Position numbers and translations under genes: made by a program. DNA of 64,000 nt, from positions 1,385,216 through 1,449,215 of the forward strand of contig CAJINV010000011.1 of assembly GCA_905178155.1 (NCBI GenBank), written 5' to 3'. Positions 565 through 55,800 of this stretch are shown here, one piece after another (the stretch's first letter is position 1; every line of letters starts with the position of its first letter). The notes under the pieces are model-generated. The model did not search any database. It saw only the letters and a list, made by a program, of their open reading frames with translations, and was not told where the DNA came from. The stretch is from Amoebophrya sp. A120. Its lineage: Eukaryota; Protista; Dinoflagellata.

Positions 565-1704
565 GTGGATGAAAACAACACACTTCTCCGGGCAAAGAAG
601 CTACTAACACCAAGGACGACCCGCGGCTGCACAACCTTGTTCACAAAAAGACTCGCTTTGTACAGCGTGCGGGCCGCTTATCTCCTCTGCTTTTTTTCGG
701 CACTGTCGATGCTATTTTGCTGTTACCTCGCAATACGGAAGGGACAGGGCCGGAGTCGTAGACAGTCAGCAAATGACGCCGCTCGGCACGATTCGCCGCC
801 AGGAGTGGCGGACCATGTGGATGCAGACCGAACCAGCTCCATGTTTTTTCATTCCATTTTCAACGGACGCCTGCTGTTGCAGCAGCTGATCCCGATATTA
901 GTCAACCAAGTCGCACAGGACCTGCTTCCATTCCCACTCGGGGGCCACTATCGCACAACCGACCTGGAGCAAGTCACGTATCTCACAGCCGTTTGTGTAG
1001 CCGTCATGTTCGTGTTGCACCTATCGATACATTCGACGATTACAACTAGCACAGCCACTTCTGCGGCGCAGCATCGGAGCCAGCACTTTCTCAAGCGCAT
1101 CATCAGCAAAGCGAGTACGAACTTCACAGCTGACGCTGACCACAGCTGCGATCTCTACTCGTCGAACCAATCAAGAATCTCGCATACACTTCCGCAGGAT
1201 CAAAGTAGCATCAATTTTTCCTCCGACCAGCTATCCGAAATCCATTCTGACCGAGATTATACAACCAGGGGACAGCAGGAGGAAGATCCCAATTCTAGCT
1301 GTGTGCTGACCCCGTCTTCGAATGGAGAGGAAACAGCTCCTGTGAAAATTTTGACACAGAAGACAGGAAACAATGTAAAGGTAAATGGTACCCGCCCATC
1401 AACAACTTCCGGTACTCACGGTGGATTCGCGTCAAATAGAAACAACACAAACCTGCAAAACCAAGTTGCCGCTGCCGAAAACAAATCGCTCCCGTCGCCC
1501 GCCAAGAAGCCGAGTGCCATCGAAGACCATGCAAACCGATGGCAGTGGCACCTTCATAAATCCTCCCCATCGAGGAAAACGCTTGCCCCGCCGCCGCCGG
1601 CCCTCGTGGTTCCTCGGGAACTTTCCGCAACGCGGCGGCAAAGTCAGACCGGACAGGGTACCAGCGTTTTGGTCTCGCCGCGGGTTTTGTGCAAGAACAA
1701 ATGA
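565..1704 (+). CDS. Hypothetical membrane protein; 3' end hit by an insertion
   Basis: 379-aa ORF with two hydrophobic segments (AAYLLCFFSALSMLFCCYLAI; VTYLTAVCVAVMFVLHL) and an S/T/N-rich tail. It ends inside the duplicated 46-bp block. Confidence 0.4.
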   Translation: MDENNTLLRAKKLLTPRTTRGCTTLFTKRLALYSVRAAYLLCFFSALSMLFCCYLAIRKGQGRSRRQSANDAARHDSPPGVADHVDADRTSSMFFHSIFNGRLLLQQLIPILVNQVAQDLLPFPLGGHYRTTDLEQVTYLTAVCVAVMFVLHLSIHSTITTSTATSAAQHRSQHFLKRIISKASTNFTADADHSCDLYSSNQSRISHTLPQDQSSINFSSDQLSEIHSDRDYTTRGQQEEDPNSSCVLTPSSNGEETAPVKILTQKTGNNVKVNGTRPSTTSGTHGGFASNRNNTNLQNQVAAAENKSLPSPAKKPSAIEDHANRWQWHLHKSSPSRKTLAPPPPALVVPRELSATRRQSQTGQGTSVLVSPRVLCKNK

Positions 1705-2446
1705 CGAAAATAGGGGGAAAGAAGGAAATAGTAAATGATGAAGGAATTCCGAACATGTACATCAAGCAACTGACGCCGGACATCATCAGAAGACTGACGA
1801 TGGAACGGATACAAGAAGATGACATGACCAAGTGCAACACCGTCTCCGAGTACATGATGCAAAGAAGACTACAACTAGGACCATTCCGCCCGCCGACCGG
1901 GGTCCTACAAAATCGGGAGAGCGAAACTCTGATGTTCTATCTCTGGCTTGGTGTAGCTCCATCAGGACAAATAGGATGGGGAGAAATTAGATATGGGGAA
2001 GATAAAGTTTTTAAGCAAGAGTGCGCGTTTTGCAAGCGGTATTTCGACTGTGCAGTCGATCATGTGTTGCTTGAGTGCCCCAGCCTTGACACACAGCGCC
2101 GTAGGACTTTAAGCCCAAATAATCTAACTAGAACACTAGGCCGCGACTACTTGCAAAACCCGCAGAAAATTCTCACTTTCATCACAGAAGAAGATGCAAA
2201 TCTTACAACTAAATTCCATCGCGACCGAATACAACCAGTACTAGGGAAGACCGGCACGACGATGGAAAAAAAGCAAAAAACGAAACTACGGGCATCGAAC
2301 GTCTTCGAAAAGTATGCCGAGAGCAGCAATATGGTGCAGGAGACATTCAAACGGAAAGTAGAAAAAAGGCAGTAGACCTCTCTCCAGCTGAAAGGCAGTA
2401 GACAGGGCACCAGCGTTTTGGTCTCGCCGCGGGTTTTGTGCAAGAA
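1652..2446 (+). repeat. 46-bp direct repeat pair (1652-1697 / 2401-2446)
   Basis: gacaggg(t/c)accagcgttttggtctcgccgcgggttttgtgcaagaa, 1 mismatch. Both copies are followed closely by atgacg. Confidence 0.95.
1707..2400 (+). mobile_element. 5'-truncated non-LTR retrotransposon-like fragment (C-terminal CCHC zinc-finger region)
   Basis: ORF 1689-2375 contains CAFC-x7-DHVLLECP, a LINE-type C-terminal zinc motif. No RT core is present. Flanked by a 46-bp direct repeat; the 3' tail repeats aaaggcagtagac. Confidence 0.65.
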
Positions 2447-3207
2447 ATGACGCCGATCATACATGGAAGTAGAAGCAGGACGGTGAGGATCAGTACCTGG
2501 ACACCGGAGAGAATAGCACCAAGTTTCAGATGAAACAGAATGCGTCAGAACTCCGACGTAAAAGCGCACCTGGTAGATTTGAGTTTGAGATCGAGATAGA
2601 CACTGACATAAAAATTTTTTGAGAATATAACTTCGACCATTTTCATGATGATTCTCGTTTTCCATTGCAGCACAAAAGCGCTGGCGGCCGCGCGCTGGGA
2701 ATGTTTTGGTTTTGGAGTTGTCCATGACCACACCGAGGGTCACCTGTTTTGAGGTTCGGGAACGCGGATACAACTACAGTTGGACCGAAGACGTCGTTCG
2801 TGCGTCGAGCTGCAATCACAAGACATGGAAAGCGAGAGTGCCATCCATACAGAGTGAGAATTCGCAAAGTTCTACTTCCGGTGTGTGTGTGAAAGTGAAT
2901 GAAGAGTTGTCGACGTGAGCATGGGCTTGGCATAATTTGCAATTTATTTGTTAATAACACCCTTTCGTTGGGCTTGGGCTCGGGATGTTGTGTCGTTTCA
3001 AAATCGCGATGTTGTGTGTGGTTCTTCTCTTGATCGTTTTGTGTGATGTGTTTGCCCTTGCAGCAGCGGCTTCTCGTTATCCTATTGAGCGCCAGGTCGT
3101 TGCTGCAGCAGGCGATAGAAAAAGAACTTTTTCATTGTTCATGTTGTTTGAACAGGAAAAGAGAATACAGTAAAACTTGTAAATGATTGCTATAGCCTTA
3201 CACCAAA

Positions 3208-5958: not shown

Positions 5959-6578
5959 TGACACCGAATCCGAATGGCGAGTCTCCGTCTGCAACTACTG
6001 CTGTAGAGAACTAAGAACTCAGCGACGATCGTCGTCGAAAAGTGCTCTAAGAATGTGCCCTTCTTTCATCGAAGGTAGCTGCTACATGATCTGCAGAACT
6101 ATTGTTGAACCTGAAACGCAGCTTCGCTGCCAACACGAGGTCCACCGCCCTGAGTCTGATGAGCAAAAAAAAAGTGAAGAGCTTCTGAAGTGAGATCGAT
6201 CTTCGTACCATCTTTGGTTCTCACTCTCAGCGGAACTCAGAAAACGAAACTAGATCAGCAAAGCAAAAACATCCTTTTCTTCGAACGTAATCCGGTTCCA
6301 GAACCTGATCCTTCAACAAGCTCTCGAATCGGATCTGGATCAGAAATTCTGGCAAGCATATGGAATTATGCTCGTACTACCGTAACAAGACGATGACGAT
6401 CATCGACCCCTCTGCTCCTCCATGCTTCACCTTACAGCGACATCATTTTACCAAAGCCTGTGAGGAGGTGTCTAACTATTTCGATTGCGATTCGGACGGC
6501 ACAGCGGGCCATACGGTTTCCTATAATTTACCCTGATCTTTTATTCACGAGTCTCACATATTTATTTCCAAACCGAAA

Positions 6579-12738: not shown

Positions 12739-12999
12739 ATAAATACTTGATGTGATCTAATCACTTCTCATGCGAACTACTGCACTTCTTCATCATCATC
12801 TTCTCGTAGTCAACATCTTCTCTCGTTCCTCTTGCTCTTCGATTGATGTTGCGTGCCATTGCTGCAATTATGCTCCGGTCGTGCAGGGCGATCGAAATCT
12901 TCGAATTATGGTCGATCACTACCTTGCATTGCCATCAATTGCTTCATCACAAGGCTGCAACTGCTCCGCTCGAACAGGAGATCGGGCATAGCTTGCGAG

Positions 13000-13139
13000 T
13001 ATGCATTGCAAAAGCAACGTAGTAGTAGTAATTACATTACAAATTACCTCAGCATGACAAATTGCTGTTTTACCTTGGGATGGAGATTTGTAAATGCATG
13101 TTTGGAATTACTACGAGTACGATACTTTTGCACAGGATA
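13000..13139. mobile_element. Introner (family A); host gene unresolved
   Basis: tatgcattgcaaaag...cttttgcacaggata; perfect DR gcgag. Confidence 0.85.
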
Positions 13140-23500: not shown

Positions 23501-26385
23501 CACTGTTGATCCGAAAAGAGCAAGACATCAACGACGGTGGGAGAATCGTGCTGGACCTACCCGCGATGGGGGTTGCGGATCCGAGCAGTGTCCTTTTAGG
23601 CACAAGTGTAAGTAGTCAAGAAGCTTCTGAACGACAAGATCCTGGCGCGGCGGACCGGTATTTCGCGGAAAAAGTTTTCGAGCGAAAGCCCTACAGCGAC
23701 AGTGAGGATTTCCTGCAAGAGATGTCGGACATGGCCATGCGGTACTGGCGCGTCGTGGACAAAAACGGGCGCCTGATTGGAGAGCCGGATCATGATCGTG
23801 GCCGCGATGAGGCAGAAACACAAGAAAAACACCTGCCACAGGATGGCGAATTTGACGAAGAGGGCGCAAGAACGCGGGAGCGAGAGGCACGAACAGATCT
23901 TCCAGAAACTGCAACACAAACCACGTTTGATCTTCTCAAACTCTCCCACGACGAGTCCAATTCGAACCTCTCTCCCTTCCCCCACGGCCGCAACTACACG
24001 CTGGAAATATTGACGGAGCAGGCCATTCGCATGCTCTCTATTGAAGGACAGATTCCGGACCATGTCGCGGCCTTGGGAAAGGGGTACGATGACATGAGCC
24101 GGGGGCTGGGAGAAAACGACGAGTCGTTTTCGCGAGTCATGTTCCACGGCCGCAAATTGTACGAAAAGTCCGGGTTTCGGGATTTCGTTTATGGTGATGA
24201 AGCGAAAGTTGGCGAACGAAACCAGCGAGGAGCAGCAAGCAAGGTATTAAGCATGACAGAAGGGAATAGTGATGAATGCGACAAAGCATCAGCCGGTGCA
24301 AAAAGAACGGGACCAGCAACAGCATCATGTTCGTGGCGGTCCGGCAGCTCTAGAAGTGTCGCTCCCACTCCTACCAGCAGCGCCCTCTTCTCCCCCTCCT
24401 CCTACCGGAACCCGCCGACTTTTGAGTTCGTGGAATCAACTTCGTTGTCGAAATCCAATTCCGCGGACTACCAGAGTTTCGGCGCTTTCAAGGCGGTCGT
24501 GATGTTTCCCTACGCCTACACGCAGTTTTGGTTTTTCGAACTGTACTATCAAAAGGAAAAATCCCCCCTCCCCATATCGAAATGGAAATCTGTGATGCGG
24601 GATTTGGGTACACAAATCGGCTCTGCCTTGCAGTGAAAGACTGCAACCAGATACAAAGCCGGAGTAGGGGCGCTTTGGTCTAGGCGCGTGGCAAGACAGG
24701 CGTATCCTCCGTAGGCCATCCAGCATTACAAATTGCTTTCAGAACGCGGAGGAGCCTTTGGATTTGCCTTCTTGCAACACAGAGACGATTTGTGGTCTCA
24801 AATCGGCATCATAGGGGGGAACTAAGGCTCATCGGATATCATGGGGAACTAAGGCTCAAATCGGCAACATCACAAATTTTAAGAAGTGTCCCTGTTTAAT
24901 ATGGGGAGGGGAGATTTTTCCTTGCAATATGTACCACATCGGCGTCCCGATTTTTCTGCCGGAGAAACGAACCTTGCCACTCTACGTGGGCCAGGACTTC
25001 ATCCGCTTCCAATTTTACGTGATTTCGGATCAAGTTCCTTGTCGAGGAGCAGCAGATCAGGAAAATAACGACGACGTCCCGCCAGCACCAGCAGCCGCGT
25101 CCCACGAGTACCACCCGTTTTTAGAACACGCCAACCTCCGCGCCTTCCTCTACTGGGTGCAGTTCTGCGAATGGGTCTCTTGGCCGTTCATCACGGAATT
25201 TGACAGTTTGCGAGGCTTGGTGGAGCACTTCAACCCGAACAGTGACTCCGCGGGGAAGCTAGCGCAAATTTCCCGCAAAATGCGGCAGTTTTCGCAGAAA
25301 GTCACCATGGACAACGCGGCGAAGTGGCGGACGGGACTGGCCGCGGTGCTATCGGTCCCGGTCGCAGAGCGGAAACCGATAACTCTTGCAAGAAAACCTA
25401 GTACAACCGAGATTTCAACGTCTGGTCCTGTCGCTGAAGGTTCCTACTTTTTCGGCGACCTTTCGACGCACCAGCCCTGCGGGGGCAGCCCGGGACGGGA
25501 CGACAGTCCCACACAGAAAGCGAACGACGGGAAAATTCTGCAAGACCACCCGAATGAATACCACATATGCATTACAAATTTCAACCTACCGCGCAGCTAC
25601 ACCGACAAAACGCATCGCAAACTTTGTAAAAATACAAATATCCACTTCAGAGCATTATATCAATCTACAACTTGGCAATCGCAATCTACTGAGTAATAGG
25701 GTAGTTCATGATGCAACTAGAGAAAAAAATCTCACTCTCAGATGAAACTGCGTTTGTTTGTGTGCGTTGTGTCCGAGAAATTTTTTACTGTGCATACGCC
25801 ACGAACGAAAACTACATGCAGCCCGGCGAGGACGCGTTTTGGTGGGTGCAGTTGCGCGAGCACCGGAAAGTGGTCAATGTCACGATTTGGGCACGGGATT
25901 GCTGCTCCGAGCAGATGATGCAAGCAGCAGAGGAACTACGTGTTGAGACCTCCACACCAGAAGTGCCAGAAAAAGCGCAGCATCCAACCCTCGATCTGTA
26001 CCTGTCCGTCGACAGCAACAGTTTAGAGGATGCAATTTTCTGTGGCCAAGTGAAAAACATCGAAGACGGGTCGATTCGGAGCGGGTTATGCGACGTGAGG
26101 GAAGTCGTCACGAGCGAAACCGAAACCGAAAGTCAAAGTGACCACGATCACGAAAGGAAGCACACTGGAGGTCGTGTTCCAGATTCCTATGATGACTACA
26201 AGAAGCAGTTGCTCGACGAGGTCGGGGGCAACGTGTTGTTCGTGGTGAACCGAGCGAAGAAACGGGACGGAATAGTTCCACCTCCGGAGCCCGCAAGTTT
26301 GATGCTTCCCGAGGTGTTGGTGTCGGATGTTGGATGGGTGCCGGACCGATACCAGATGGAGGCAGGGGAATTGGTGGTTCCCTGA
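20511..26385 (+). CDS. Large protein with a putative glycosyltransferase-like region and a C-terminal F-type-lectin/discoidin domain; 6 exons split by 5 introners
   Basis: ORFs 19872/20993/22532/23122/24929/25708 join in frame after removing five introners. KANDG...YHT...FWWVQL...VVNVTIWARDCC fits an F-type lectin fold. The GT-like call (FKAVVMFPY...ELYHIGVPIFLP) is weaker, and the start codon is uncertain. Confidence 0.7.
20847..20999. mobile_element. Introner (family A, reverse orientation)
   Basis: tatcctgtgcaaaag...cttttgcaatgcata; DR tccgt. Removing 158 nt gives WLHFR-FNTKMG. Confidence 0.92.
22493..22754. mobile_element. Introner (family B, tgtctgggtctgg TIR)
   Basis: tatgcactgcaagaatgtctgggtctgg...ccagacccagacatttttgcaattcata; DR actcc. 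Removing 267 nt gives VSYS-AQQIT. Confidence 0.92.
22794..23114. mobile_element. Introner (family C)
   Basis: tattgtgaggaaaaatcccc...ggggatttttcattttgata; DR gccga. Removing 326 nt gives VDEP-KLAQQ. Confidence 0.92.
24547..24929. mobile_element. Introner (family C, opposite orientation to 22794-23114)
   Basis: tatcaaaaggaaaaatcccc...gatttttccttgcaata; DR tgtac. Removing 388 nt gives FELY-HIGVP. Contains an internal duplication of ggggaactaaggctca. Confidence 0.92.
25566..25796. mobile_element. Introner (degenerate)
   Basis: tatgcattacaaatttc...gaaattttttactgtgcata; DR ccaca/cgcca. Removing 236 nt joins ORFs 24929 and 25708. Confidence 0.75.
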
Positions 26386-28177: not shown

Positions 28178-28429
28178 CCGGCGACGTGTTCTGAAAGAAG
28201 AACGACGGCCACGAGGAAAAAGCGTGCTAGGCGCAGCTCCGGAGTACACGGCAAGCGTTGGGCTCGACCCGAAGTCTTGGTGTTGTAGATGAAACGTTGG
28301 CTGGTTCTTTCTATTGAAAGTTGCGATCAAATTTCGCATGGTCGAACAAGAGCAAAAGAAAACTAAATGTTTTTCTCTGTCGTAGTTCACAAGCACGAGC
28401 GACGTCGTGGATAGAAATTGTCGACAGTC

Positions 28430-29330
28430 CTATCTATGGAGGCGGGTCGTTCTCTACGACAAAAAAAACAATAGAGCGCAGCAGCAGCTTGCTTGCGCCC
28501 CTGGCCAATTGCTGTTGGCTTCTTTGACATTGCGTGGCGGGGCTTTAGTATTCAGATTTTTTCGCGCCCATTCCTTTTGTGGCGCGCTTGCGGATCGCAG
28601 TTTTTCACTTATGACTCCGCTCTCTTTCGGTGGTGCTTGATGTATTTCCTCCTGATGTGGTTTCTAAAAAGTCATCTTGGTGCTAACCACACCAAGAAAA
28701 GCTTCTGCTCCACTAAGAAGAGAAAAATACGATGGCACTACAACGCGGAAGGGGGGATCCAGCGAGTTAGTATCAGTCGAAAATCGACTTACACGCGAAT
28801 TTCGACCTTCCTGGTGTCAGTGACACGCGACTGAACCTAAAAGAAAATCCATCTGCCGAGTTCAGTTTCACGTCGAAAACCGACGGCGCGCTGGATCGCC
28901 GAAAACTCCCTTCCGCAACACAAATTTTCGAACCTTTCTGGGAGCTAAAACAAATTCCCTCTGCTACGGCCCTGTTTCTTCAGGGTGTCATGGAAAAATT
29001 TTCACGCGCTGCGCGCACGGAAATGCCCTCAGCGCCGTGCGCCCCCACGCGTCAAAAGAAAAAACTCGCTCGCGCGCCGCGCGCGAACCACTTCAAACCA
29101 TACCAGACTTCGCCGTGCAAGAATTACGTCTGTCACGGTCAAAAAAGTAAGAGACTAAGAAGCCGCGCTTAAAATCAAATTTGGCCAGTCGAAGCATTTT
29201 GGATTTTTGAAATCCGATTTTGGATCGGAGTAAATCGCTGAGGTTTTGCGACGACCGGATGACCGACCGCACCTACCCCCCCCTTCTCGATACCGAGAAG
29301 GGGGTCGATTAATCGTACGGGCTCCTAAAA
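28430..29330. mobile_element. Non-coding insert ending in a 26-nt GC hairpin plus a 26-nt tail (..ctcctaaaa)
   Basis: Bounded by 61-bp units; hairpin cccccttctcg-atac-cgagaaggggg at 29279-29304. The same end architecture recurs at 30687-30738. Confidence 0.6.
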
Positions 29331-29391
29331 GTTTTTCTCTGTCGTAGTTCACAAGCACAAGCGACGTCGTGGATAGAAATTGTCCACAGTC

Positions 29392-30358
29392 TTGCCCTGC
29401 GGTTTCGTGTTGTAAAATATTTCCTCGCCGAAGCGAAGAAGTTTGGCCGTGTCGAAGTCCTCACCGTAGGCTTCCCGGTGGGAGTTGCTGCCATTCAGGC
29501 ACTTTCGCGGCATTATCGACAAACAGAAAACGTAGTGCTTTATCGCATAGCACCACAATTTTTTCGGCAGTCCGGAGTCAGCGATGAGTGTTCTTGTGCC
29601 CGCGAGGGCCAGCTTGTTCAACACCTCCGCGCCGCCATTCATCGGCGAGGAGTAGTAGGAGGTGAAGACTTGGACTATTCTGTTAGCCCGGCACTCGGCC
29701 CGGAACCGCTCCGAAATAAATTCGCCACCATTGTCCGACTTCAGCCGGCGCGGGGCGGTGTGCTTCGCGATCCAGAGTCGCAGGCCATTGACGCTGTCAG
29801 CCTTGCGGCGCAACGGCGCCACCTCCGGCAGCCGCGTCTTCTTGTCCGCTATGGTCATCGCAAATTTGTGTCCGTGTATGGACTCCGGTAGAATTGGGCC
29901 GCAGAGGTCCGTGCTGATTTCGTCATTGAATGTCAGTCGGCCCTCGTACTGGTCATCCCGCGGCCCCGCCCGGTGTGGAGCCTTTGCTGCTCTGGAGATC
30001 GTGCAACTCTGGCAGAACCCGCGGTATGGCAGTATGTGTGCGCTGCGGCAGTGGTCTTCGTAGCTGTAAGTTAGACACGTGTGCTCCTCCTTGGAGGTAT
30101 TTTTGTGGAAAACTACATAAAACAAACCATTTTGGAATCTATGAATGCTAACGCTCTTCTTCTCCTGGCCGGGGAGGAAGAGCTTTGTCAGGTCCGTGCT
30201 AAAGCGAAATCCTTTCTGCAGCAAAATGCTGACAGAAAGAATGTTGAAAGGGATACTTTCGTTGAAAATCGCCCTGCTGATTACGATCAGCAGGTTGTTG
30301 TTAGCCAGCGGCTTGGGTTTGCATATTGGTGCCTTGACTGGCTCACCGAATATGCCCG
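29392..30358 (-). mobile_element. Ty1/copia pol fragment (end of protease region, HHCC zinc finger, complete DDE integrase core); no LTRs, gag or RT
   Basis: NILSVSILLQKG, NGLFYV, HCRSAH...CQSC, ISTDLCGP, LKSDNGGEF, MNGGAEVLNK, SGLPKKLWCYA; reading frame uninterrupted. Confidence 0.92.
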
Positions 30359-30408
30359 AGTTCACAAGCACGAGCGACGTCGTGGATAGAAATTGTCGAC
30401 AGTAGGCC

Positions 30409-30657
30409 ATCCTCCGTAGGCCATCCAGCATTACAAATTGCCTTCAGAACAACGCGGAGGAGTTTTCGGATTTGCCTTCTTGCAACACAGAGACGATGTG
30501 TGGTGTCAAATCGGCATCACAAATTTTAAGAAGTGTCCCTGTTTAATATGGGGAGGGGAGATTTTTCCTTGCAATATGTACCACATCGGCGTCCCGATTT
30601 TTTTGCCGGAGAAACGAACCTTGCCACTCTACGTGGGCCAGGATTTCATCCGCTTCC
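30409..30657 (+). repeat. Displaced copy of 24704-25010 (3' half of a family C introner plus about 80 nt of the following exon)
   Basis: Near-identical sequence including the ..ttgcaata|tgtac junction and YHIGVPIFLPEKRTLPLYVGQDFIRF. It lacks the ~60-bp internal duplication of the source. Confidence 0.95.
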
Positions 30658-31441
30658 GGGAGGTTGGTCTCCAGCGGGCCGCTACCCCCCCTTTCGCCAT
30701 GGCGAAAGGGGGTCCAATTGTTGCACAGCCTCCTAAAAGTTTTTCTCTGTCGTAGTTCACAAGCACGAGCGACGTCGTGGATAGAAATTGTCGACAGTCT
30801 GCCAGCACGTCTATGCTTCCATCTTTGGCAGATGCTGCGGACTGTTGTTTCACTCAGATGCACCCTACTTCGTTTCCGCATGGTGCTGAGGATCATGGAG
30901 TCTTGTATTTGAAAAAAAGCGATCATGCAGCATGGTACCTGCACTAGGACACAACATCATGCTGGAGGAACGCCATTTATTCATGTTCTTCGTCAGAATA
31001 TTTTGAATGGCGGCTGTTCACGACCTCCGGGAATAGCAACTTCTTTCATTTCTGATGTTGGATTTGGATCTACTGCATAGGCGCAACTACACCGTAAAGA
31101 TCAGACTCACTAACTACGCGTTCAGCTGCAGCAGAACCCATAGAAAACCGTAGAGGGAGGTGGTTGAAACTTTCATTTTTACTTGACAAGTTTTGATGGT
31201 CTCGAGGAGTGCCTGCACAGTAAAAAATACAAACGCAACCTTCTTTCCATTGATCCTGTTCTTGTTCCAAAATGAGAACGTAACCACAATCCAGCTGCGC
31301 CACCGGCTTTCCTTTGTTTTGTACTTCGGCCTAATTTCATTTTTGAGCACTACTGCACTTTCTTGGGCTTCTAGTACTGGTTCACCACTTTGACGAACGT
31401 ACTTTTTCCAAGAAAAAAAAAGCAGAAATAGAGAACCGATC

Positions 31442-40390: not shown

Positions 40391-41571
40391 ATGGTTCTGA
40401 CAACGCGGCACTGTAGAGGACTCTCCACTTGTACTTTCGACATGAGCGGCGCCCATGATGGAGGGATATCAAGAATCGCCGGCGCAAGAAATAAGATGCT
40501 GATGCTTCTGGTTGTGAGGTTGTTCCTGCAGTGTACAACAATTTTGCTCCTGCTCGAGCATGGTACCGTATTGGCGCTGAAACACACGGAGAAAAACATG
40601 CACGAAAGGACCGGCTTAGCCACTGCGACTGCTACTACGAAAACATCCGAATCGGAAGCCACCTCCACCGCGGAATCAGAATCCCACTCCGAATCTGCCA
40701 AAACCACAGAGGCTGAGGCTGAATCGGAATCCCACTCCGAATCTGCCAAAACCACGGAGGCTGAGGCTGAGGCGGCCAAGAAGGTGGGTTTATCCCAGAA
40801 CCAAGCTACACACCAGACGGGTGCCCACACCGGCGTCTCTGACTCGGTCCTCTCCTGCGGGGCTTGCTTGGGGCGTAAGGCCTCGTGCGCCGAAATTTCC
40901 GAGCAAGGCGGGAGCGATTTGTCGGAGGAGCACCGGAACCTGCTCTGTAGCAAAAATTACGGCGACAATGCCGTCTGGAATGACAAAAAGACGGTCGAGT
41001 TGACCGAACTGGACGACTTGATCGGGACAATATCCGAGTGCACAAGAACTGCTCTCCCCCTCGTCCCCCTCATTTTTTGCAATGCAAAATAGATACCAAT
41101 GCGTCCAAATCTGGTCGTGCCTCTAAGCGCAGTCTGCATGGCGACAAATTTTGGAGCCTCTGCCCCTTCAAACAGTTCTACAGAATTCGCGTGTAGTAGA
41201 TAAGATTTGTCATACGAGAGCCACCTAGTTTCTGGTGTCGCTGGTTGTGTTGCTACTCATCGGCCATTCAAATGAGGGGGAGCAGGCGGGGGCGGACTTG
41301 TGCACTGTCATAGAGAGTGAAAAAGAAAGACTATCGAGCACTCGCGAAGGCTTGCTGCTCGGCCACGGCGGCGGCCTCTTCTTCATCCTCGTCGTTTATG
41401 CATTGTAGAAAAGGATTAGGATTGTCACGCACAGTCACAGGGTCGAAATTGTACTTGTACCGTAGGGAAAAACTAGAGGTTGTTGACCAACAGACCTCCG
41501 AAAAATGCAGAAGCAGTCAAGAAGTAGTACTCAATGTTCTCTACTTTCACCGGCCAGGGAGTATGATATGA
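40391..41571 (+). CDS. Cys-rich secreted protein (paralog 2); ends uncertain
   Basis: Signal-like MLLVVRLFLQCTTILLLLEHGTVLA, a T/E/S-rich repeat, then SCGAC...SCAE...LLCS...-KKKDYRALAKACCS...SSSF. Joined by introner 41031-41312. Confidence 0.65.
40673..40768 (+). repeat. 2 x 48-bp coding tandem repeat (ESESHSESAKTTEAEA)
   Basis: Two near-identical adjacent copies. Confidence 0.9.
41031..41312. mobile_element. Introner (family D, agtgcacaa TIR)
   Basis: tatccgagtgcacaag...ccccctcattt / aaatgaggggg...cttgtgcactgtcata; DR gacaa/gagag; 287-nt removal is in frame. Confidence 0.8.
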
Positions 41572-42230
41572 AAGCACCCACGTGGACGGGTTGGGAGATA
41601 ATCACGATGAAACTTCTATAAATCTAGCATGTAAAAGTTGATGTCTTCTACTTCCTTATCCTTGTAGTTGCGAGGTTGATATGGCTACCTGAATTGATTT
41701 TTTTCTCTCGTGACAGCGACCCTGGTGATATGATGACAATGCGTTGATTTTCGTGGTGCATAGATTCCTCCAGCAGTTCGTCGTTTCTCGAGAACCAGCA
41801 GGCGGTCACGAAGCAGGAGGTGAACAGGAAGCTATGAGAATGAAAAGCGTGTCCCATCTACGTCCCATACAGCGAAATGAAATTGTTTGTGATGCAAATG
41901 AGTCTCCACGACGTTTTGAAGATGCATGAAGACTTTGCTCTCGTCGCCTTACATAGAAGGAAAAATGCGTCGAGGACGCGTTTTTTCTATTTTCTCGTGG
42001 TCGTGAAGATGCCGTTGCCGTTCGGGCGTACTTAGGCATACTAGGTTCTACCAGCTCATCCCACATCAATGACAAATGTTCTTGCCTTTACAAGTGTGAA
42101 GCGGGAGCCCACCAACGAACAACACGGTAAATTCTTCCTCTACATTTGAAAAAAGGGATTTGCATTTGTGCTGAGCATTTTGAATTTCGATTCCGGGGAA
42201 GGTGGGGCGCTTTTGTTCCTTTCGATACTA

Positions 42231-42492
42231 TATCAGATGCAAAAATGTCTGGGTCTGGAAGAGTGCGCCACTTGTCATGCAGCTTTTCCATGACCCATGA
42301 GGCTTGGAATGCAGGACCCAGCATGACAGATTCTGTGCGATCTCTCTCATGCCTGTCCTGCATGAGAAACTCCCTCCCGACTTGGTCAAAACTGGACGAC
42401 TCTTGGTAATCATGCAACACAGATTTTTGCATGCTTCAGATTTTGCATGACAAGTTGCATTCTTCCAGACCCAGACACTTTTACATTTGATA
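42231..42492. mobile_element. Introner (family B); host gene unresolved
   Basis: tatcagatgcaaaaatgtctgggtctggaag...cttccagacccagacacttttacatttgata; perfect DR tacta. Confidence 0.9.
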
Positions 42493-42557
42493 TACTACCA
42501 GCAGGAGAGTTACAACCACGAGAAGCCGGCGGAGTTTCTGCATTGCTGCTAGGACTA

Positions 42558-43332
42558 TACAAGTGCACAACTCCCCCTCCCCCTCGAAATATTAGTATTT
42601 GAATATTTATTTGGTTACCAAATAGCGCGCTTCTATGTCACCAAATAATGCGCTTGTATGTCATCAAATCGCGCACATTTCGACCCCAAATGCGGAGCGT
42701 TTGCGTTGCTTTTTGTGCGACCAAAAGCGTCGCAAAAGTTTGCACTCTCTCGCTATGCTGTGAAAGCTAATCGCGATGGTTTAGGCTCGCTCTCCCTCAC
42801 CAAAGCTGTCCACTTCCCCTCATGAGGGGGAGTGGGCCCATAGCATCGCGATTAGCGATCAAAGAGTAATATTTTTTGAGCTCATTTCCGAGGTCCCTAA
42901 AAAGTCCCTGATTTGACGACGCAAAGCCTCATGATTTGGCGAGCATTTGCCAGATGAAGTTTGGCAACTTATCAAGTTACACGCAGAAGAACGCCCGGCC
43001 TTCTCTTTTGGTTGCTGCCGTTTCCTTGTTCATTCCTGACGCAGTCATCTGGCCCCGATTTCTGCGCCAGATGTGCGGAGATCACAGGCCTCGTCCTCGA
43101 CTCGACCGGTCAAAGGCGTGAAGGCGCTCCGGAAGCGCGGGCTTTTGCTTCGCGTTTGCTGCCACCAAACGCAACATAATCGCTGCGAGCTTGGAGGCGA
43201 AATGTGCGCGATTTGATGACACAAAAGCGCATCACTTGGCAACATACAAACGCATTATTTGGTAACCAAAAAAAATTTGATATATTATGAAATAGTAATA
43301 TTTTGAGGGGGAGGGGGAGTTGTGCACTGTTA
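42558..43332. mobile_element. 775-bp non-autonomous TIR element (family D-like ends) flanked by a 65-bp duplication
   Basis: TIR agtgcacaactccccctccccctcgaaatatta / taatattttgagggggagggggagttgtgcact, with further inverted blocks (tcatcaaatcgcgcacatttcg). Flanks 42493-42557 and 43333-43397 match at 61/65. Confidence 0.9.
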
Positions 43333-44890
43333 TACTACCAGACGGAGAGTTACAACCACGAGAAGCCGGCGGAGTTTCTGCATTGCTGCTAGTACGACGA
43401 CGGTGTCCGAAGAATGTGGAGTCTGGGGGGTGAGCACGAAAATAAGAAGACCAATATCGAAGCTGCGCGATACTACCACCAGCACCACTTCCACAGATTA
43501 TTTGTACCTGTCTTGAGACGTCGGCCTCATCCACATTATTTACTTTTTTGTTTTCTTTTTACCTTTAATTTTGTTTTCATAGCATGTTTACATAACCACC
43601 TTAACCAGTCCTTTAACTTGAATATTTTGCACCATTTCAACATTCACATTTCAAACTAGAAGTACCGCAATTCTTAAACGTTTTGGCATCAAAGAAAAGA
43701 AATACTGAGAACTGTAGTAGAATGCCGATAAAATTAAAATACACCGACCACGTAAGTAAAGAACAACCAGAACAGAAGCACTAGTAAAGAGTTTCGTGAA
43801 CAAGTTGTGCAGACGAGGGGTAACAATTTCTTTCTGCACGCAGGAGCGCGACAACAAGAAGTACTACACTATTTTATTCGCCCAGAGAAGAACGAGAGGG
43901 CTTCTTTTCTGCAAAAGGAAATGCGTGCCCGTGCGAGCCTCTTGCGGGTGCGGCGTCGCGCGGTGGTGCTCGTGTCGGTTGCATTTGATACTGTAACTTT
44001 CGGAAGTGCAGCACCTGTTCCACCACACCCTCTGAAAGTAAGACGTTTTCCGAAAAACGACCTCAGATCGCGGCGGGCGAACGAGAAGATGAAAAGATTA
44101 CATCGTTGGCACATGATAGAATTGCAAAATAAAACGTTTGATGTGCTGTCGTCCATTCGGTTTCGCTGTATGAGCATATTCTTACCACCTGGTAGGGTTT
44201 TTCGGTTTGCTTTTTTTTGTTTTTTGTTTTTCGGTTGTCAGTATTTCGTTCAAGAAGTGCACCTGGATTCGGTTACGCCTCATAAGTCGTGATAGAGATG
44301 AATAAATCGGGACCGGCCTGCGATCGTCTAGACGACGTGGAAGACGACCACGTAAAAATACGGAGCCGCCGCGTTTGTGTAGCTCTATCAAAACACTAAA
44401 ACACACATCAACAAAGCATCACATGAATACACACATCAAAACACACAAAAGGACCCTTCTCGCCCGATTGCTTTTTGATGAAGCTTTAACTTGTAATATT
44501 ATCTTTCAAAGAACAAGCCATGCATTTTTTACGCCTAATATAGATGGGAAGACCCAAGAAATTGAAAAAAGAACCTGCATCTTCTCAAAGTAATTGCAAG
44601 AACCTACAGATGAACAAGAAGTGTCTGGATAGTCTACAACTATAATTAACGGTAATTATCTGGTCGTGCTCCTTATTCTCGTCGTCATTGCATCTCCGAA
44701 GAAAAGACTAAAATTTTCCTGATAACACGTCCCTTCACTGTACTGCCTGGCTCAGCCAGCACGAAGAAGGCAAAGCTTTTGCCGAAAACGCCGCAAGTAT
44801 CAGCCCCATGCTGCGACGAAAGGCAGGAGCTGCGCAGTGGTTGTTGCTGGGATCATGGTCCGGTTCTGTTTTCGGGGTGGGTGGCATCGG

Positions 44891-45209
44891 TATGAAAAGT
44901 AGAGTGCACAACTTCATCCCCACGTCGTGCCCTCAGTTGCATATTACTAATGGCTCTTTTCACAGCAAAAACAAAAGTGCCAGTAATGGTAAAGATGCAG
45001 GAGCTCCAGATGTGGTCGTGCGACAAAAAATTGCGACAAGAAGTACTTATTCTGTTATTTCGGAATTATTTTCCGGATCGCCCCCCTGCTCCTGTCAAGC
45101 GAGCAGAGCCAAGAGCAGCGAGAAGAAAAAGTGTGACAATTTGATATTTATGTGCATGACGAAGGTTGAGGGGAAGTACAAGTAGAGGGAATTTTTGTGC
45201 ACTCCGATA
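44891..45209. mobile_element. Introner (family D), DR lost; could splice as GT-AG
   Basis: gagtgcacaa...ttgtgcactccgata ends; 324-nt removal is in frame. GT at 44890 and AGs ending at 45210/45213/45216 are also in frame. Confidence 0.65.
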
Positions 45210-45339
45210 GAAGAAGCGGTGGACCACAGCACCAACTCGAACAAGGCACCTCGTCTCGTTCTTTATGATCCAAATAGGAAGGGTCGTGATTCTATGGGTG
45301 GCGATTCCTGTCCTGTAAGGCGCTCTCAAACTCGTTAAG

Positions 45340-46932
45340 TACTACACTCGTCTCAACTGTTGTTACACGAATTTGCGATGCAAAACGAGCAAAAGTCGTG
45401 CAGCGAGGGAGCCTGATGCGTCGTCGTGTCCCGCATTTTCAAAAAAAATTCGGCACAGCTTATTTCCATGGCATGCCGTTTAGCGCTTCAAGAATATGTC
45501 ATGCCAAGTTGGCCCGCCGTGGAAGGTCGGCAACGGCCGCTGTTCCGCCGTGGCTGGTCTGCCACATCTGTTGGTCTGCCGCTGCTGGTCCGCCGGGCGT
45601 GGCAGGTTGTCCGCAGCTGTTGATCCGCCGTGGCTGGTCTGCCATACATTGCTGGCCCCCCGTGCCCGTTGCAGGTCTGGTCGATGCCACCGTTGGCCCG
45701 CCATGGCACTTTTGCCGCAGCTGCTGTTCCGCCGTGGCTGGTCCGCCCTGGAAGGTCTTCAATCCCGCGCGCTTTTCTTTGGGAGTTGGCCCCGAGCCCT
45801 TTCCGAGCTGGGTCGCTTCCGTTGTGTTTGCCTTGGGAAATGCGCGGAAGCCTTCCCCCGATTTTCGCAAAGCCCTTCGCCACATGCACATGGAGGCTGG
45901 GCTGCCGCGGCTGGTCTGCCACTGCTGGGTGGCCCGCCGTGGCAAGTCTGCCGCTGCTGGTCCACCGGGCGTGGCAAGTTGCCCACCGCTGCTGATCCGC
46001 CGTGGCTGGTCTGCTATTGCTGGCCCGCCGTGTTTGTGGCAGATCTGGCGCCACCGCTGGTCCGCCATGGCACTTCTGCTGCAGCTGCTGGTCCGCCCTG
46101 GAAGGTTTGCCAAGGCTGCTGTGGCAGATGCCACCCACAGATGGTCTGTTGTGGCCAGAGCTGCTCCGCCATGGTACATGGTAGGTCGGCCACAGGAGTC
46201 GCTGAGCCGCAAAATGGAAGGTCTGCCAGGACTGGTCTGCCATGGGTTGCCTGCCGTGGCTGGTTTGCCACGCACTGCTGGTCGGACCAGCCATGCATGG
46301 CAGGCCTGGGGGCCCGCCATGGTAGGTGTGCCGCAGCTGGTCCGCAATGGCAGGTCTGCCGCAGCTGCTGGTCCGCGCGCCATGGCTGGGCTGCCATGGC
46401 TGGTGGGTCTTCCATGGCTGGTCTGCCGTGGCAGGTCTTCTCCTTACTGCTGGTTCGCCATGCATGGCAGGCTGGTTTGCCATGGCAGGTCTGCCACAGC
46501 TGCTGGCCGGCCTTGGCCGGTCTGCTACAATTGCTTGGCCCGCCATGGCTGGTCTACCACAGCTGCTCCGCCATGGCAGGTCTGCCGCAGGAGCTGCCTG
46601 TCCGCAAAATTACAGGTCTGCCACATCTGCTGGCCCGCCATGGCTGGTCTGCCATGGCTTGTCTGCCGTTGCTGGTCTGCCAGGCACTGCGGGTCCGCCA
46701 TGCGTGGCAGGTCTGCCAGTGCCATAGCTGGCCCGAAGTTGGAAAAATGTTTGTCGGAGTTGGAGAAGTTTTTTGATTTTTTTTTTTTCCTTAGTTAACA
46801 TTTCTATGGCATGCCGTTTAGCGCTTCAAGAATTTGTCATGCCAAGTGGAGTCTTGATTGTGCGGAGGCTGATAGGTTTTTTGCACCACGACAAATCCCG
46901 ATGTATTAACAGTTGTTGAGAGCAGTGTAGTA
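45340..46932. mobile_element. Introner carrying a nested 1.3-kb insertion
   Basis: TIR tactacactcgtctcaactgttgtta / taacagttgttgagagcagtgtagta; cgtt repeated on both flanks. Confidence 0.75.
45510..46799. repeat. GC-rich degenerate minisatellite insert (gccatggctggtctgcc / gctgctggtccgcc units) flanked by a 48-bp duplication
   Basis: Dozens of related short units and a T-rich right end. Flanks 45462-45509 and 46800-46847 match at 46/48. Confidence 0.9.
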
Positions 46933-47223
46933 ACGTTTGAGACCACTGTCATATCCTGGTTGCTGGAATTGTAAGTAGGATTCTGGATGCGGACCGGAAA
47001 CGACGTGCAAGGAACTCTCTCTGCACATGAAGGAATCGGGATTGGCGGACACGCGGATGACCCATGACCTGTGGGCAGAAGTACTGTGTGAAAGGGCGGG
47101 CGGAGGCTTAGAATATTTGCACGACTCCGACACGAAGGTTCTCATTAACGAGGACGACCCGCGTTGGGCGTCTAATGACAAGACCCTTGCGGAAAAATGC
47201 TGCGCGAAGCCCGCTATGGTGCT

Positions 47224-47393
47224 TATGCATTGCAAAAGCTATGTATCCAATACAACGATTAGTGATCGCATCTTCTTCATCACAAATTTCCCCAGAAGGG
47301 GAAATGAAAGTTATCATGCATGAACTATGCAAAAGGGATTTGTCGTGCATAATTGCGATGAGTACGAATACGATATTGCTTTTGCAGTGGATA
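47224..47393. mobile_element. Introner (family A)
   Basis: tatgcattgcaaaagc...gcttttgcagtggata; DR gtgct/gtacc; 175-nt removal is in frame. Confidence 0.85.
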
Positions 47394-49003: not shown

Positions 49004-50932
49004 ATGATGCTGCGAACCAAAACGGCCGCGCAGTTACTGCTGTTGGGATCATCGGCCGGTGGTCCCAATTTCAGCTTGGTGGGAGCGGTGGACACGGCGA
49101 AGGAGCAGTATGAATTGCAAAAATGTCTGGGTCTGGAAGATTGGAGCTTGTCATGCTAAAACCAAATCATGCAAAAATCAAAATCTGTGTTGCATGACTG
49201 CCAAAAGCTGTCCTCTTTCGACCAAGTTGGGAGGGAGTTTCTCATGCAGGATAGGCATGACATAGTCATAGATCTCACAGACTCTGTCATGCTAGGTCCT
49301 GCATTCCAAACCTCATGGGGCATGGAAAATATGCATGAGAAGTTTGCATTCTTCCAGACCCAGACATATTTGCATTTGATAAGCAGAACCGCGAATCCAT
49401 GTTGAACAAGCAGAAGGAAGGCTGCACCCCCGAAGCGAAGAACGAAGCAAAAACTGCCCCTGCTGCTGCTGCTGGTCCCTACGCTGATTTGACGTGCGAG
49501 GAATATGACAAGCTTCCGGTGCTGGCCAAAGTGAGCGTGCAGTGCGACAGCGGGGCTGCGTTTTATCGAGACGCATCGAAAATTGCGAAGCTTATCCTGC
49601 CGAAATGAAGTCTTGACGCTAAATAACAAGCCTTGACGTGGTGGTCGACCAGGGTGGTCGCAGCTACGCTGTGCGGTGCATGATTATAAAACAAAAAACA
49701 TAAAACTACAGCAGCAGCAAATAAGCGCAAGAACTGGTACCCCATTTTTACAGCATGATGACTATTTCATGTGAACAAGATAGAATAGTACATAGACAAC
49801 ATGCAAATCATGTATGTAGTCTGTCTCTTTCTGTTTGTTTGTAGTGCTCGCATCAGAAGACCAACATCATCGTCCGGAGCAGAATGGGCGCTCAAGGCTT
49901 AGCAGCGTTATTTCTTTATTTTCGGATAAGGTCGGGTCGAGTCGAAGAGGTCAAGAAGGCATGCTGCAAGATCGCCGAAGGTCCAGGCGGGGGTGCCTCC
50001 TTTCTCCAGCTATTCGAAGAAAAAGTTCCCCAACCCCTCAGGATTAGATAATCTGCGACGCTGGAATTATGTTGGTGTTGCACGCAAAAGAACTTGTCGT
50101 TGTTTCACGACCACGGCGGTGAAGTATTGGGATTTGCGTACTACACAAATTAGCTTTGTCTTGCAGCATTAAAGGACTGCAAGTAGATCATCTCAAGGTC
50201 AAGCCTGGGCACGGATGTTCTATGTATCCGGTGTAGGTTCTTAGCATGAAGACAGTTTGAGCCTATGCTGTGCAAACCGCGTGCATGATTATGCGGCGGA
50301 CTCTCTACTGTCTCTGAAAAATGTCGCGCTGCCCTCTTGGAAGACAGGCGCGGCCACAAATCAGCATCGAAAATCCTCAGAAGCATACGCACCTTTCCAA
50401 AATGGGGATGTCGGGGGATTTTTCCCCACGATAGGACACGGCGAAGAAGGGCCCAGAAGATGACAACAAGAAGGACGGCGGGGACGGCAAGGGCTGCTGT
50501 GGTGGGGGAAAGGATGACGACAAGAAGACTGGCGCGGCCTCGTTTCTTTTGACGGCGAAGAAGGGCCCAGAAGATGACAACAAGAAGGACGGCGGGGACG
50601 GCAAGGGCTGCTGTGGTGGGGGAAAGGATGACGACAAGAAGACTGGCGCGGCCTCGTTTCTCCTGACGGCGAAGAAGGGTTCAGGAGAAGACGAGGAGAA
50701 CAAGAAGGGCGAGGACGGCAAGGGCTGCTGTGGTGCTGCTGCTGGGGATGAAAAGAAAAACGGTGGCAAGACTGGTGCGGCCTCGTTTCTCCTGACGGCG
50801 AAGAAGGGTTCAGGAGAAGACGAGGAGAACAAGAAGGACGGCGGTTGCTGTGGGGAGAAAGCGGACGGTGGGAAGACGGGGGCCCCCAAGGCTCGGGCCT
50901 CGTCCAGCAGCACTTCCTTTGTACAAGTCTGA
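49004..50932 (+). CDS. Cys-rich secreted protein (paralog 4) with C-terminal KGCCG / ASFLL repeats; 4 exons split by 3 introners
   Basis: MMLRTKTAAQLLLLGS...GAVDTAKEQ-NRES...GC...LTC...VQC...IAKL-GRVEEVKKACCK...ASFLQ-AKKGPEDD...SSTSFVQV*. Confidence 0.7.
49109..49381. mobile_element. Introner (family B)
   Basis: tatgaattgcaaaaatgtctgggtctggaag...cttccagacccagacatatttgcatttgata; DR agcag; 278-nt removal is in frame. Confidence 0.92.
49593..49928. mobile_element. Introner (degenerate)
   Basis: tatcc..ccgaaatgaag / ctttattttcggata plus aaataac..gccttga / tcaaggc..gttattt; DR aagct/aggtc; 341-nt removal is in frame. Confidence 0.7.
50011..50433. mobile_element. Introner (family C, degenerate)
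   Basis: tattcgaagaaaaagttcccc / ggggatttttccccacgata; DR decayed; 428-nt removal is in frame. Confidence 0.7.
50437..50885 (+). repeat. About four coding tandem repeats (first two 114 bp)
   Basis: TAKKG(P/S)...NKK...GCCG...KTGAASFLL repeated. Confidence 0.92.
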
Positions 50933-52847: not shown

Positions 52848-55800
52848 ATGGAGACCACGCAGAACCTGTTGAAGCCGTGCGGTAGTTCTCGAGAACTAGA
52901 AGGAGACAACATCGAGAACATGTTGGGATCTTCGAAATTTGATGTTCCCGGCGACGTTTATTGGGGCGCTGCTCGTGGTCACCTCCGGGGCGCGGCATTT
53001 TTTACCCTGCTCGGACTGCAAGTACTAGCTTTATCTCTCGGCCAGTCCGCTCAACTTGCCGCGGCAATGGAGTCGCGGAACCAGCAGAAGCCTCCGCCGA
53101 GCACAAGTAGACGCCGACGCGGACGCCCCACGACAACTGCAACTTCGGGGCGGGATGATGATGCCGTGCCTCTACTGCCCGGACCTGTGGTCAGAGGGTC
53201 CGCTTACTGTCCGGATCTTCAGATGCGTACTAGAAGCTGCGCGACTTCTAGTGAGGTCCATGTTGGGACGAGCCCTATGAGTGCTAGTGCAGCTGCGGCT
53301 GCTCCAGCTCCCGAGGGAGGCGGTGGACATCCACAAGAACAACCAGCGCCGTACTACGTTCCGTACGGAGGAGATTGTTCTCCTTCTAGCCAGACCGACG
53401 GCCCGCTGATGCCCCCATTTTCCGGGAGTGGTCCTTTTGCGCAGCTATGCCTTGCAAATATCCCTGGATATTGTCTGGAAGAATGCGCCTTTTCATGCGA
53501 AGTCTCGAACCCAAAAAGATCTGTGTTGCATGAACCCCAAGAGCAGCTGCCCTTTTCTTCCTAGGTAAAAGGTGGATCATTTTTCATGCGGAGTACTTAG
53601 TTAGACATGATCAAGAGGGTCCTTGGGTCGCGCAAAATCTGTGATGCTTCTGTGCATTGCAAATCTTGCATTCCTCCAGGCCCAGATGAAGACATATTTG
53701 CAATGCATAGCAGCAGCAGCAGTACACCTACTGTGGAGGTTCCGGCTTCGCTTGCGGTTCATCCCCTTCTTCGACCTCGGGAGCCGCGTCGCCGACTCCC
53801 ATCACGGTTTATTGTCCCATGATAGCCGTCCCCGTCCCCGTCTACGTCCCGAACCCGATGGGCCAGCAGGGGCAGACCCAGCAGCAGCATCAACATCATG
53901 TTCCAGTAGGCTCCTACGCTTCTGCTTCACCTTTATCTTGGTCGTCTTACGGTCCGGCAGCCGGCGCAGGAGGAGGAGTCGTGCTGTCACCGAATAGTGG
54001 TGCGATGTCTCTTCCTGCTGTGGACGAGGTTCAAGAACTACCGCAGGGAAACAATAGTACAACCCATCAGTACGATCAAAACCTGTTTACAAGAACTCCT
54101 TATGCATTGCAAAAGTAACGTAAACGTACCAGTATAAATAGCATCACAAAAAATTTCCGCAAGAACAGAAATGGAATTTGTAATTCTGTTGTAGGATTAG
54201 GTTTAGAAAGAGATTTGTCGCGCATGACTGCAATTTGATAGACGAATGCGGTGCTTTTGCAATGCATACACCTGGGGGAGGAGAAAGAACGCAGGGGCAT
54301 CAAGTACCAGCAGGCACGGCCGGCGGCCAGTCGTACGTTTGGCGCCCAACCGGACGAACACGCCCGAACCCCTGGCTCTGCGAGCAGGAACAACAACCAG
54401 ATATCTGCTCTGCTGCACAAAACGTGGGCTGCGCTTCGGGTGGAGGTCTACTTGGAGCTGCTCATTGTGATTCGAAATTTTATAGGCACCCTTGGAGCGC
54501 TTTGCGGCGTGCCTCGCAACAAGGACGAACGATCTTCCCTGGCACAGCAGCTCGTGGAGGTCCACCAGGAGGTCGTGGGGACACGACAACTCCTCAAACT
54601 GAACCTCCTTCGGGTTCGGGCGGCAAAAACCACGACAGGGAGCACGACCAGAAGTCCGGGTTTCATCAAGAAAGCGGGGGGCCGAGTTCGTCTCTATGTC
54701 TTCAACGGTCGTTAGCGTACAGAAGTGTGAATTTGCAGTGAATTTGTATTGCATGACTTGCATTTACTTAAAAGAGAAGAGCGCTACGTATTAGACACAC
54801 GAGCCCAAGCATACCACATAGCCTGAAGGGCTGCTCGTCGCGTGGTGGCGCTTGCAGCACCAAAAGAGGTGGTCTTGCGGGGGCTCGCCGGGCTGTGTAG
54901 TGCGTATCTAGCGACCAGAGAAGGTGGGTCGGGGGGCTCTTAGTCTTCTGCGCGTCTGCCTCAGAAGTTCCTCTCCGAAATGGTCGAAAGGGAGGGCGAC
55001 GCCTGAACACAGGGGCACTAGTTCAACATGTATGCTCTCACGAGTTGTGGTTGGCTCGGCTTGGACTTGGATATCTGGGAGCAGCCTCGGGTGGAAGGGG
55101 AGGCACGATTCGGCCGCGGGCGCTAGCTTGCTTCGCCTGCTGTGCTCTGCTCACAACGGCCGGAGAGTTCACGCGCCTGCCGGATAGACGCGTCAAAGCT
55201 CTCGGCCGGGTCCTTTCGCCCTTGCCTTCGCGCCTTCTTGCCTAATTGCATTTGCTTCGCAGCGCTTTCTTTTTGGCGTCTCTGCCCCGGCTGCTGGCAG
55301 CAGCTGCAGTGCTCTTATGCGAGCACAGGGAGACGAATAGACATGGCCAAAGAACGGCACCCAGGCCATGTCTAGAAGCTGCCCGCCGCATAAGCCTTGA
55401 ATTCTGCGGTGTGCAGATCGCACTTCCCAGAAGGGCAAGAGGGACAATGTACCGGCGGACCCACCTGCAATTTGTCATGCAAAATTCACTACAAATGCGC
55501 AACTTCTCACGCTAACGGATGTTAAAGCTCTAGACCAGAAGTCCGGGTTTCGTCAAGAAAGCGGGGGGCCGAGTTCGTCTTCTTGTTCTTGGAACCAGGG
55601 CGGTCGTCCTGGTCGTCGAAGCAGAGGGGATGCGAAGAAGTTCTGTGCGCAGATTCTGCGGGACGAGGTGGACGAACTCGTCGACAGTGCTTACAGCCTG
55701 GCAACATGTGCGGGCAGACACGAGGACGAGGACCAAAGCGGGAACATGATTACGACCCCGGGCAACCTGGACAGCGACCGACTCGGGGTTGTGGTGGCAC

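Follow-up and report, generated by a model that had tools for sequence, protein, structure and literature searches.

The question raised by one 64,000-nucleotide (nt) stretch of the dinoflagellate Amoebophrya sp. A120 (contig CAJINV010000011.1, positions 1,385,216 to 1,449,215; hereafter the window) is what produced direct duplications of about 50 bp around several unrelated insertions, when the border repeats of introners in this organism are given as 3-5 nt (Farhat 2021, PMC7789003; statements on published work apply to the portions cited). Introners, their non-canonical splicing and the long target-site duplications (TSDs) of some long interspersed nuclear elements (LINEs) are already known. 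The firm gains here are read support for the long duplications, which are a real feature where tested, and a splice junction that keeps the duplication in RNA: a likely-RNA contig lacks a 779-bp element with terminal inverted repeats (TIRs) together with 5 nt, the register of an ordinary introner, and retains both copies of the 61-bp duplication around it.

Long direct duplications around unrelated inserts

The first-pass annotation had claimed five long repeat pairs, and all five were located in the window, with refined boundaries (Table 1). The pair given as 65 bp around a 775-bp TIR element is there, but as 61 bp around 779 bp. Positions 28369 and 30739, taken for the flanks of one insertion, actually begin the outer two copies of a four-copy array that lies partly on a Copia fragment. 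A sixth case, a 336-bp insert with a 44-bp duplication, contradicts the proposed rule that inserts of at least 700 bp carry long duplications and those under 430 bp carry 5-bp ones, as does the published A120 TIR family 38, of about 808 bp, whose TSD is listed as 5 bp (Gozashti 2025, PMC12130899, supplement file 8).

At the simple sites the duplications measure 44, 48, 49, 52-55 and 61 bp, about ten times the length usual for introners, and the longest direct repeat expected by chance at 100-3000 bp spacing is 13-17 bp (20 third-order Markov simulations). The two copies differ by 2 mismatches at the 838-bp element, by 2 at the minisatellite insert, and by 1 substitution and a 3-nt indel at the LINE tail. 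The repeat search reported only pairs of at least 22 bp; beyond known element ends, tandem repeats and copied segments, it returned no insert-flanking pair of 22-43 bp or of more than 67 bp at spacings up to 8 kb. No common target consensus was evident by eye over the six sites.

The window (50% GC, 0 N) is dense in TAT...ATA inverted-repeat elements of 127-423 bp, which match the A120 introner motif of TAT, 7 nt and AAA (PMC7789003). Twenty other TA-ended elements were picked by hand for comparison, 4 further starts without a pairable end being omitted, and none of the 20 has a long duplication. Their 5-bp flanks agree at all five positions in 12 elements, at four in 3, at three in 2 and at two or fewer in 3. 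The TA-ended elements at 50011-50433, 57412-57684 and 58450-58801 have no recognisable 5-bp duplication; the last is nevertheless skipped as element plus 5 nt in a contig of read set X3 (record 15). In 58 A120 supplement rows of PMC12130899 the TSD is 2-11 nt where a value is given; these values are our own reading of unlabelled columns, and the automated method used there may miss long TSDs. No published report of 45-60-bp duplications around introners was found in a search that left subscription papers mostly outside its reach and did not cover the Farhat supplements.

Table 1. Positions of the long duplications, their inserts and related features within the window
Feature	Position	Strand	Observation
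LINE site, left copy, 55 bp	1652..1706	+	Includes stop codon of open reading frame (ORF) 493-1704
5'-truncated non-LTR retrotransposon ORF tail, 694 bp	1707..2400	+	C-terminal zinc knuckle
LINE site, right copy, 52 bp	2401..2452	+	
Introner 3' part and 81 bp of exon	24704..25010	+	To 30409-30657: 92% over 108 bp, and 141/143
Array repeat copy 1, 61 bp	28369..28429		
Array segment A, 895 bp	28430..29324		Right-end hairpin common to segment C
Array repeat copy 2	29331..29391		2 positions differ from copies 1 and 4; in frame with Copia fragment
Array segment B, Copia-type integrase fragment	29392..30358	-	rve E 1.3e-4, below curated cut-off; 47% to P0015
Array repeat copy 3, 45 bp	30359..30403		Left-truncated
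Array segment C	30404..30732		Copy of 24704-25010 with 75-bp hairpin end
Array repeat copy 4	30739..30799		Identical to copy 1 over 61 bp
Insert-free 48-bp tandem duplication in ORF	40673..40768	+	Only 25-89-bp tandem of at least 90% in window
262-bp introner	42231..42492		Ordinary; 5-bp duplication; abuts long duplication
779-bp element, left copy, 61 bp	42495..42555		3 mismatches between copies; X6 record 17 crosses right end into element
779-bp TAT...ATA TIR element	42556..43334		Likely-RNA contig skips element and 5 flanking nt
779-bp element, right copy, 61 bp	43335..43395		
Host introner	45316..46953		About 300 bp own sequence; 5-bp duplication; contains minisatellite insert
Minisatellite site, left copy, 48 bp	45462..45509		X1 record 8, 0 differences, 16 nt into insert
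Degenerate minisatellite insert, 1290 bp	45510..46799		No TIR
Minisatellite site, right copy, 48 bp	46800..46847		
838-bp element, left copy, 49 bp, in predicted exon	54646..54694	+	X1 record 2 (53691-54722), depth 42.8, 0 differences
838-bp TAT...CTA TIR element	54695..55532		Multi-copy family
838-bp element, right copy, 49 bp	55533..55581	+	X1 record 7 (55504-56983), depth 43.8, 0 differences
Sixth case: 44-bp duplication (59746-59789/60126-60169) around 336-bp non-TIR insert (59790-60125)	59746..60169		
Look-alike near 336-bp insert	60740..61059		268 matches, 54 mismatches, 50 gap columns

Splicing of the 779-bp element

The 779-bp element has the ends of an A120 introner: it starts with TAT, ends with ATA, and its terminal inverted repeats match at 18 of 20 positions. 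It has no 3-5-nt border repeat (1 of 5 positions matches), the 61-bp duplication standing in its place, and the run of at least AAA that follows TAT and 7 nt in the A120 motif is missing both here and in the 838-bp element. One contig of read set X6, which is only guessed to be RNA, joins 42554 to 43339 and so skips 784 nt (depth 344.6, short side 32 nt, likeness threshold 90); X6 also skips a GT-AG intron at 44890-45213. The skipped segment ends in CT..AC, and the element is thus absent from this contig without GT-AG borders. Two placements of the cut fit, one taking 1 nt to the left of the element and 4 nt to its right, the other 0 and 5 nt; with the two 61-bp copies left side by side, 56 extra nt remain in the transcript. 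The cut position follows the element ends rather than a repeat, because the element has no flanking 5-bp repeat. The unspliced left junction is crossed by a low-depth X6 contig (42530-42684).

A 282-bp element with the same TIR has no long duplication; therefore duplication length is not fixed by TIR family. The start of the 61-bp duplication falls within the 5-bp duplication that flanks the adjacent 262-bp introner, which places two insertions within 3 bp of one point (42229-42555). The segment 42555-43338 resembles A120 fam99 (784 bp, TSD given as 11; PMC12130899) by length only.

The 838-bp element and read support

The 838-bp element is less typical, with a terminal match of 13 of 20, a CTA end, a 5-bp border match of 2 of 5 and one unmatched base at its left end. 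Both long TIR elements are repeated in the genome, as variant contigs cover both interiors; the listed pieces of the 838-bp interior reach depths of 229-537 against about 43 in unique DNA, summed depth not being equivalent to copy number. Searches with the TIR patterns gave no match in the genome contigs and viral contigs searched. No likely-RNA contig crosses this site among the contigs listed. An ordinary introner cut of the element is predicted to frameshift the gene model, with a stop at residue 549, and a GT-AG cut at 54698-55533 is predicted to keep the frame and add 17 residues; a search among longer proteins found no annotated splice form of the gene downstream.

This site also bears on whether the repeats are an assembly artefact produced by gap filling or k-mer overlap, an alternative considered serious at the outset. 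The published A25 and A120 assemblies were made with ALLPATHS-LG and GapCloser (PMC7789003, section 23), and gaps form at repeats. Read support spans three sites only (838-bp element, both junctions; 779-bp element; minisatellite insert, left junction), junction contigs enter the inserts by only 16-29 nt, less than the 31-nt guide, and read set X1 may be the assembly's source sample. The contigs fall short of the guide because they stop where the element ends turn repetitive. Against an artefact, the X1 contigs at the 838-bp site have single-copy depth and no differences from the assembly; each reaches 28-29 nt into the element and shows the variant bases specific to the copy that it contains. 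At the 779-bp site, the X6 contig that holds both 61-bp copies side by side comes from another study code, and the start of X1 record 2, at 43363, lies 30 nt ahead of the first position where the copies differ, as expected with both present in the reads. No empty-allele joint was found among the joints listed (15 of 26 and 15 of 16). The artefact reading is thus largely refuted at these three sites, and we consider it very improbable overall.

Inserts without terminal inverted repeats

The LINE tail shows 5'-truncated homology to the ORF of a non-LTR retrotransposon with reverse transcriptase: it is 42% identical to residues 808-997 of protein P0003, and its relatives carry RVT_1, RNase H or apurinic/apyrimidinic endonuclease (APE) domains. 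Named relatives are from Amoebophrya A120 and AT5.2, and the Atlas score is 0.95, with a low recognition value. The tail is represented in public sets by a 224-aa protein (1701-2375, +) whose start codon lies inside the left duplication, and a search among longer proteins gave no match. It ends 25 nt past the stop codon, in a 13-nt repeat. An extension of LINE homology through the left duplication was rejected, only a weak, low-identity alignment being seen there. Elsewhere, at positions 100-340 of locus L001, a GCATGACAA motif marks the junction between a related LINE ORF and the left two-thirds of a 262-bp-family introner.

The minisatellite insert lies within an introner. The 1.6-kb composite of host introner and insert is absent from two likely-RNA contigs, because X6 sequence runs from 45315 straight into 46959-46988; one of the two contigs may come from a paralog of about 92% identity. 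The segment 44265-45320 has a second copy of about 92% in X1, and both versions occur at similar X6 depth, as in an expressed paralog pair. With the host introner removed, an in-frame TAG follows within a few codons, yet beyond it about 80 further codons of that frame are open and rich in cysteine (46959-47223). In length only, 45316-46953 resembles A120 fam86 (1619 bp, simple repeats, 4 copies; PMC12130899).

The four-copy array

The array at 28369-30799 combines three segments with four copies of one repeat (Table 1). The Copia alignment of segment B continues in frame for about 30 nt into repeat copy 2. By this alignment the array repeat appears to be Copia-derived, and segment B may have been copied from a homologous template, which fits because the alignment enters the very copy that differs at 2 positions. 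The likely donor of segment C, judged by similarity, is 24704-25010; its template would be DNA or unspliced RNA, because segment C includes intron sequence. The left junction of segment C repeats a local 10-mer.

Segments A and C share a G/C hairpin (29273-29327 and 30682-30735) about 20 nt before the array repeat, for which an Rfam search gave no match at the gathering threshold. A Replitron or Helitron origin of this hairpin was set aside, no such enzyme being seen (cf. PMC10288648). Rejected were a TIR in segment A, as 248 of 300 shuffles scored equally well, and an extension of Copia homology to the left of the array. A 61-bp insertion of short, locally repeated pieces at 24807-24867 is missing from the copy at 30506.

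Origin of the long duplications

We infer, with a probability of about 0.45, that the 44-61-bp repeats are TSDs of a second insertion route, based on staggered nicks, fill-in and capture of available DNA. On this model, one nick in each strand, at a spacing of about 45-60 nt, would open the site; fill-in synthesis on the two single-stranded ends would follow, and any DNA available would be sealed in between them by host repair. The captured cargo would comprise whole TA-ended introners, the LINE tail, the minisatellite piece and probable copies of nearby DNA, and the APE endonuclease of a resident LINE is one candidate for the nicking enzyme. Repair capture is favored because one narrow length range holds over unrelated cargo, with and without TIRs. 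A shared, cargo-independent route had been proposed earlier; the 44-61-bp geometry common to the LINE tail, both TIR elements and the two inserts without TIRs fits it, but the proposed tie to insert length fails. Two of the eight inserts have a look-alike within 6 kb (segment C at 5.6 kb and the 336-bp insert at 0.6 kb), as expected of templates near a break. Further support comes from the absence of poly(A) ends (0 of 8), the 282-bp relative without a long duplication, the 10-mer at the segment C junction, and the one insert-free 48-bp tandem (40673-40768), possibly a no-cargo outcome or ordinary slippage. In mouse cells, paired nicks 43 bp apart gave tandem duplications by fill-in and end joining (PMC8355091).

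Several points weigh against repair capture. No empty site or donor was seen in the window and the read contigs. Outside gaps the 336-bp insert and its neighbor are 83% identical, a level at which the neighbor may be related to the insert without having been its donor. Each TIR element stops exactly at its termini, a precision that suits a transposase or an excised intron, not template copying. Ordinary target-primed insertion would leave a product like the LINE tail, which lacks its 5' part and has a possible 3-nt microhomology at the 3' junction. The insert-free duplication is a single case in 64 kb and may be slippage, nothing explains a stagger near 50 nt, and the sample is small, six sites and one array.

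The LINE tail is also the starting point of an alternative in which an APE-type LINE nicks the strands about 50 nt apart and reverse-transcribes, besides its own RNA, other nuclear RNAs in trans, such as excised introner introns and unspliced transcripts. The tail is the sole insert with a known enzyme and has a 52-55-bp duplication. Over half of new Dualen insertions have TSDs longer than 50 bp, and that of R9 is 126 bp (PMC9977147, which cites the R9 value), and L1 moves DNA-transposon sequence in primates (PMC11195612). Excised introner RNA would give near-exact ends, and the unmatched base at the left end of the 838-bp element also fits. However, none of the eight inserts has a poly(A) end, primate retro-DNAs lack the TIRs that both elements here keep (PMC11195612), and the 4 donor-flank bases of an excised intron are missing from both elements, unless hidden by microhomology. 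The 25-nt 3' end of the LINE tail may be a junction repeat instead of a true end, the one related LINE locus examined has no long TSD pair within its contig, and a diffusing RNA pool would not predict local look-alike donors. Target-primed reverse transcription in trans, suggested in the first-pass annotation, is therefore disfavored by the lack of poly(A), the intact ends of both TIR elements and the local resemblance of two inserts, and we regard it as unlikely.

The complete termini of both TIR elements speak for an introner transposase that sometimes inserts its two ends at points about 50 bp from each other, or inserts only one of them while host repair completes the other; cases without TIRs would then have separate causes. 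Bacterial IS1549 and IS1634 make repeats of 8-514 bp by a mechanism given as unknown (PMC2266710), one-ended retroviral integration yields long duplications (PMC5041404), and one A120 TA/TA family with 5-bp TSDs shows integrase-like homology (PMC12130899). Nevertheless, this leaves the LINE tail, the minisatellite, the 336-bp piece and the array uncovered, although they fall in the same length range. Truncation is common in one-ended retroviral events, and their duplications could reach hundreds to thousands of bp (PMC5041404), against 49 and 61 bp with both ends complete here; a scan of 15 ORFs gave no transposase. A wide-stagger transposase is accordingly rated improbable.

Similar lengths might also have arisen by coincidence, and through the way in which repeats are noticed, from separate causes: ordinary insertion of a LINE, rearrangement of local DNA and the rare aberrant transposition. 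The array is built differently from the simple sites, and the 22-bp search floor would miss shorter duplications of the same origin; the empty size ranges on both sides of the observed lengths, however, speak against a mixture, which is rated about as improbable as the transposase.

Comparison with known systems

The long elements resemble A120 introners in being TA-ended, TIR-bearing and multi-copy, and the 779-bp one also in its removal from likely RNA without GT-AG (PMC7789003, PMC12130899). They differ in their direct repeats, 49 and 61 bp compared with 3-5 nt (Farhat) or 2-11 nt (Gozashti), and in that splicing would leave a tandem copy in the RNA, as in the contig at the 779-bp element. 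The introner insertion and splicing process in Amoebophrya is described as an open question (PMC7789003, section 16). Tandem duplications from staggered breaks (PMC8355091) are likewise shorter than 100 bp and arise from nearby nicks and overhang fill-in, a 43-bp stagger having been tested experimentally; those described in that source carry no kilobase cargo and come from engineered nicks in mouse cells, whereas transposons and other pieces lie between the copies here.

Among retroelements, Dualen-4b of Chlamydomonas and R9 of rotifers (as cited) are LINEs flanked by duplications of more than 50 bp, like the LINE tail (PMC9977147), but Dualen duplications, at a median of 900 bp, surround copies of the element itself, as opposed to 44-61 bp around cargo that is mostly not LINE (PMC9977147). 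Primate retro-DNAs (PMC11195612) are alike in that DNA-transposon sequence lies within a TSD exceeding the length produced by its transposase. They are characterized by absent TIRs, frequent poly(A) and a TSD peak at 8 bp, whereas the 779- and 838-bp elements keep their TIRs, have no poly(A) and lie between repeats of 49-61 bp. IS1549/IS1634 (PMC2266710) and one-ended retroviral integration (PMC5041404) share with these elements a DDE-type nature and repeats far beyond normal; those cases are prokaryotic or viral, span a much wider length range and involve the element only, and no such transposase was found among the ORFs scanned here.

More tentative than the local mechanism is its extension to the whole genome, as a capture route that takes any cargo and has a built-in stagger of about 50 nt. 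Introner cargo would then be spliced at the ordinary register with about 40-56 nt of duplication kept in mRNA, combining intron gain and short gene duplication in one step and perhaps feeding fast protein divergence. By adding 56 nt to the transcript, such an insertion can directly extend a gene end or shift its frame. A long-duplication copy also separates element ends from the repeat as splice guides, a distinction that a 5-bp duplication hides. If one stagger of about 50 nt serves unrelated cargo, it would point to a nuclease or chromatin ruler that could be mapped from the genome alone.

Other features of the window

Two further observations concern coding sequence in the window. A coding tandem repeat of 114 bp, with 2.6 copies, lies directly behind an introner at 50438-50735. 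The ORF at 6537-9128 (+) encodes a lysine methyltransferase domain (PF10294, E 1.9e-11).

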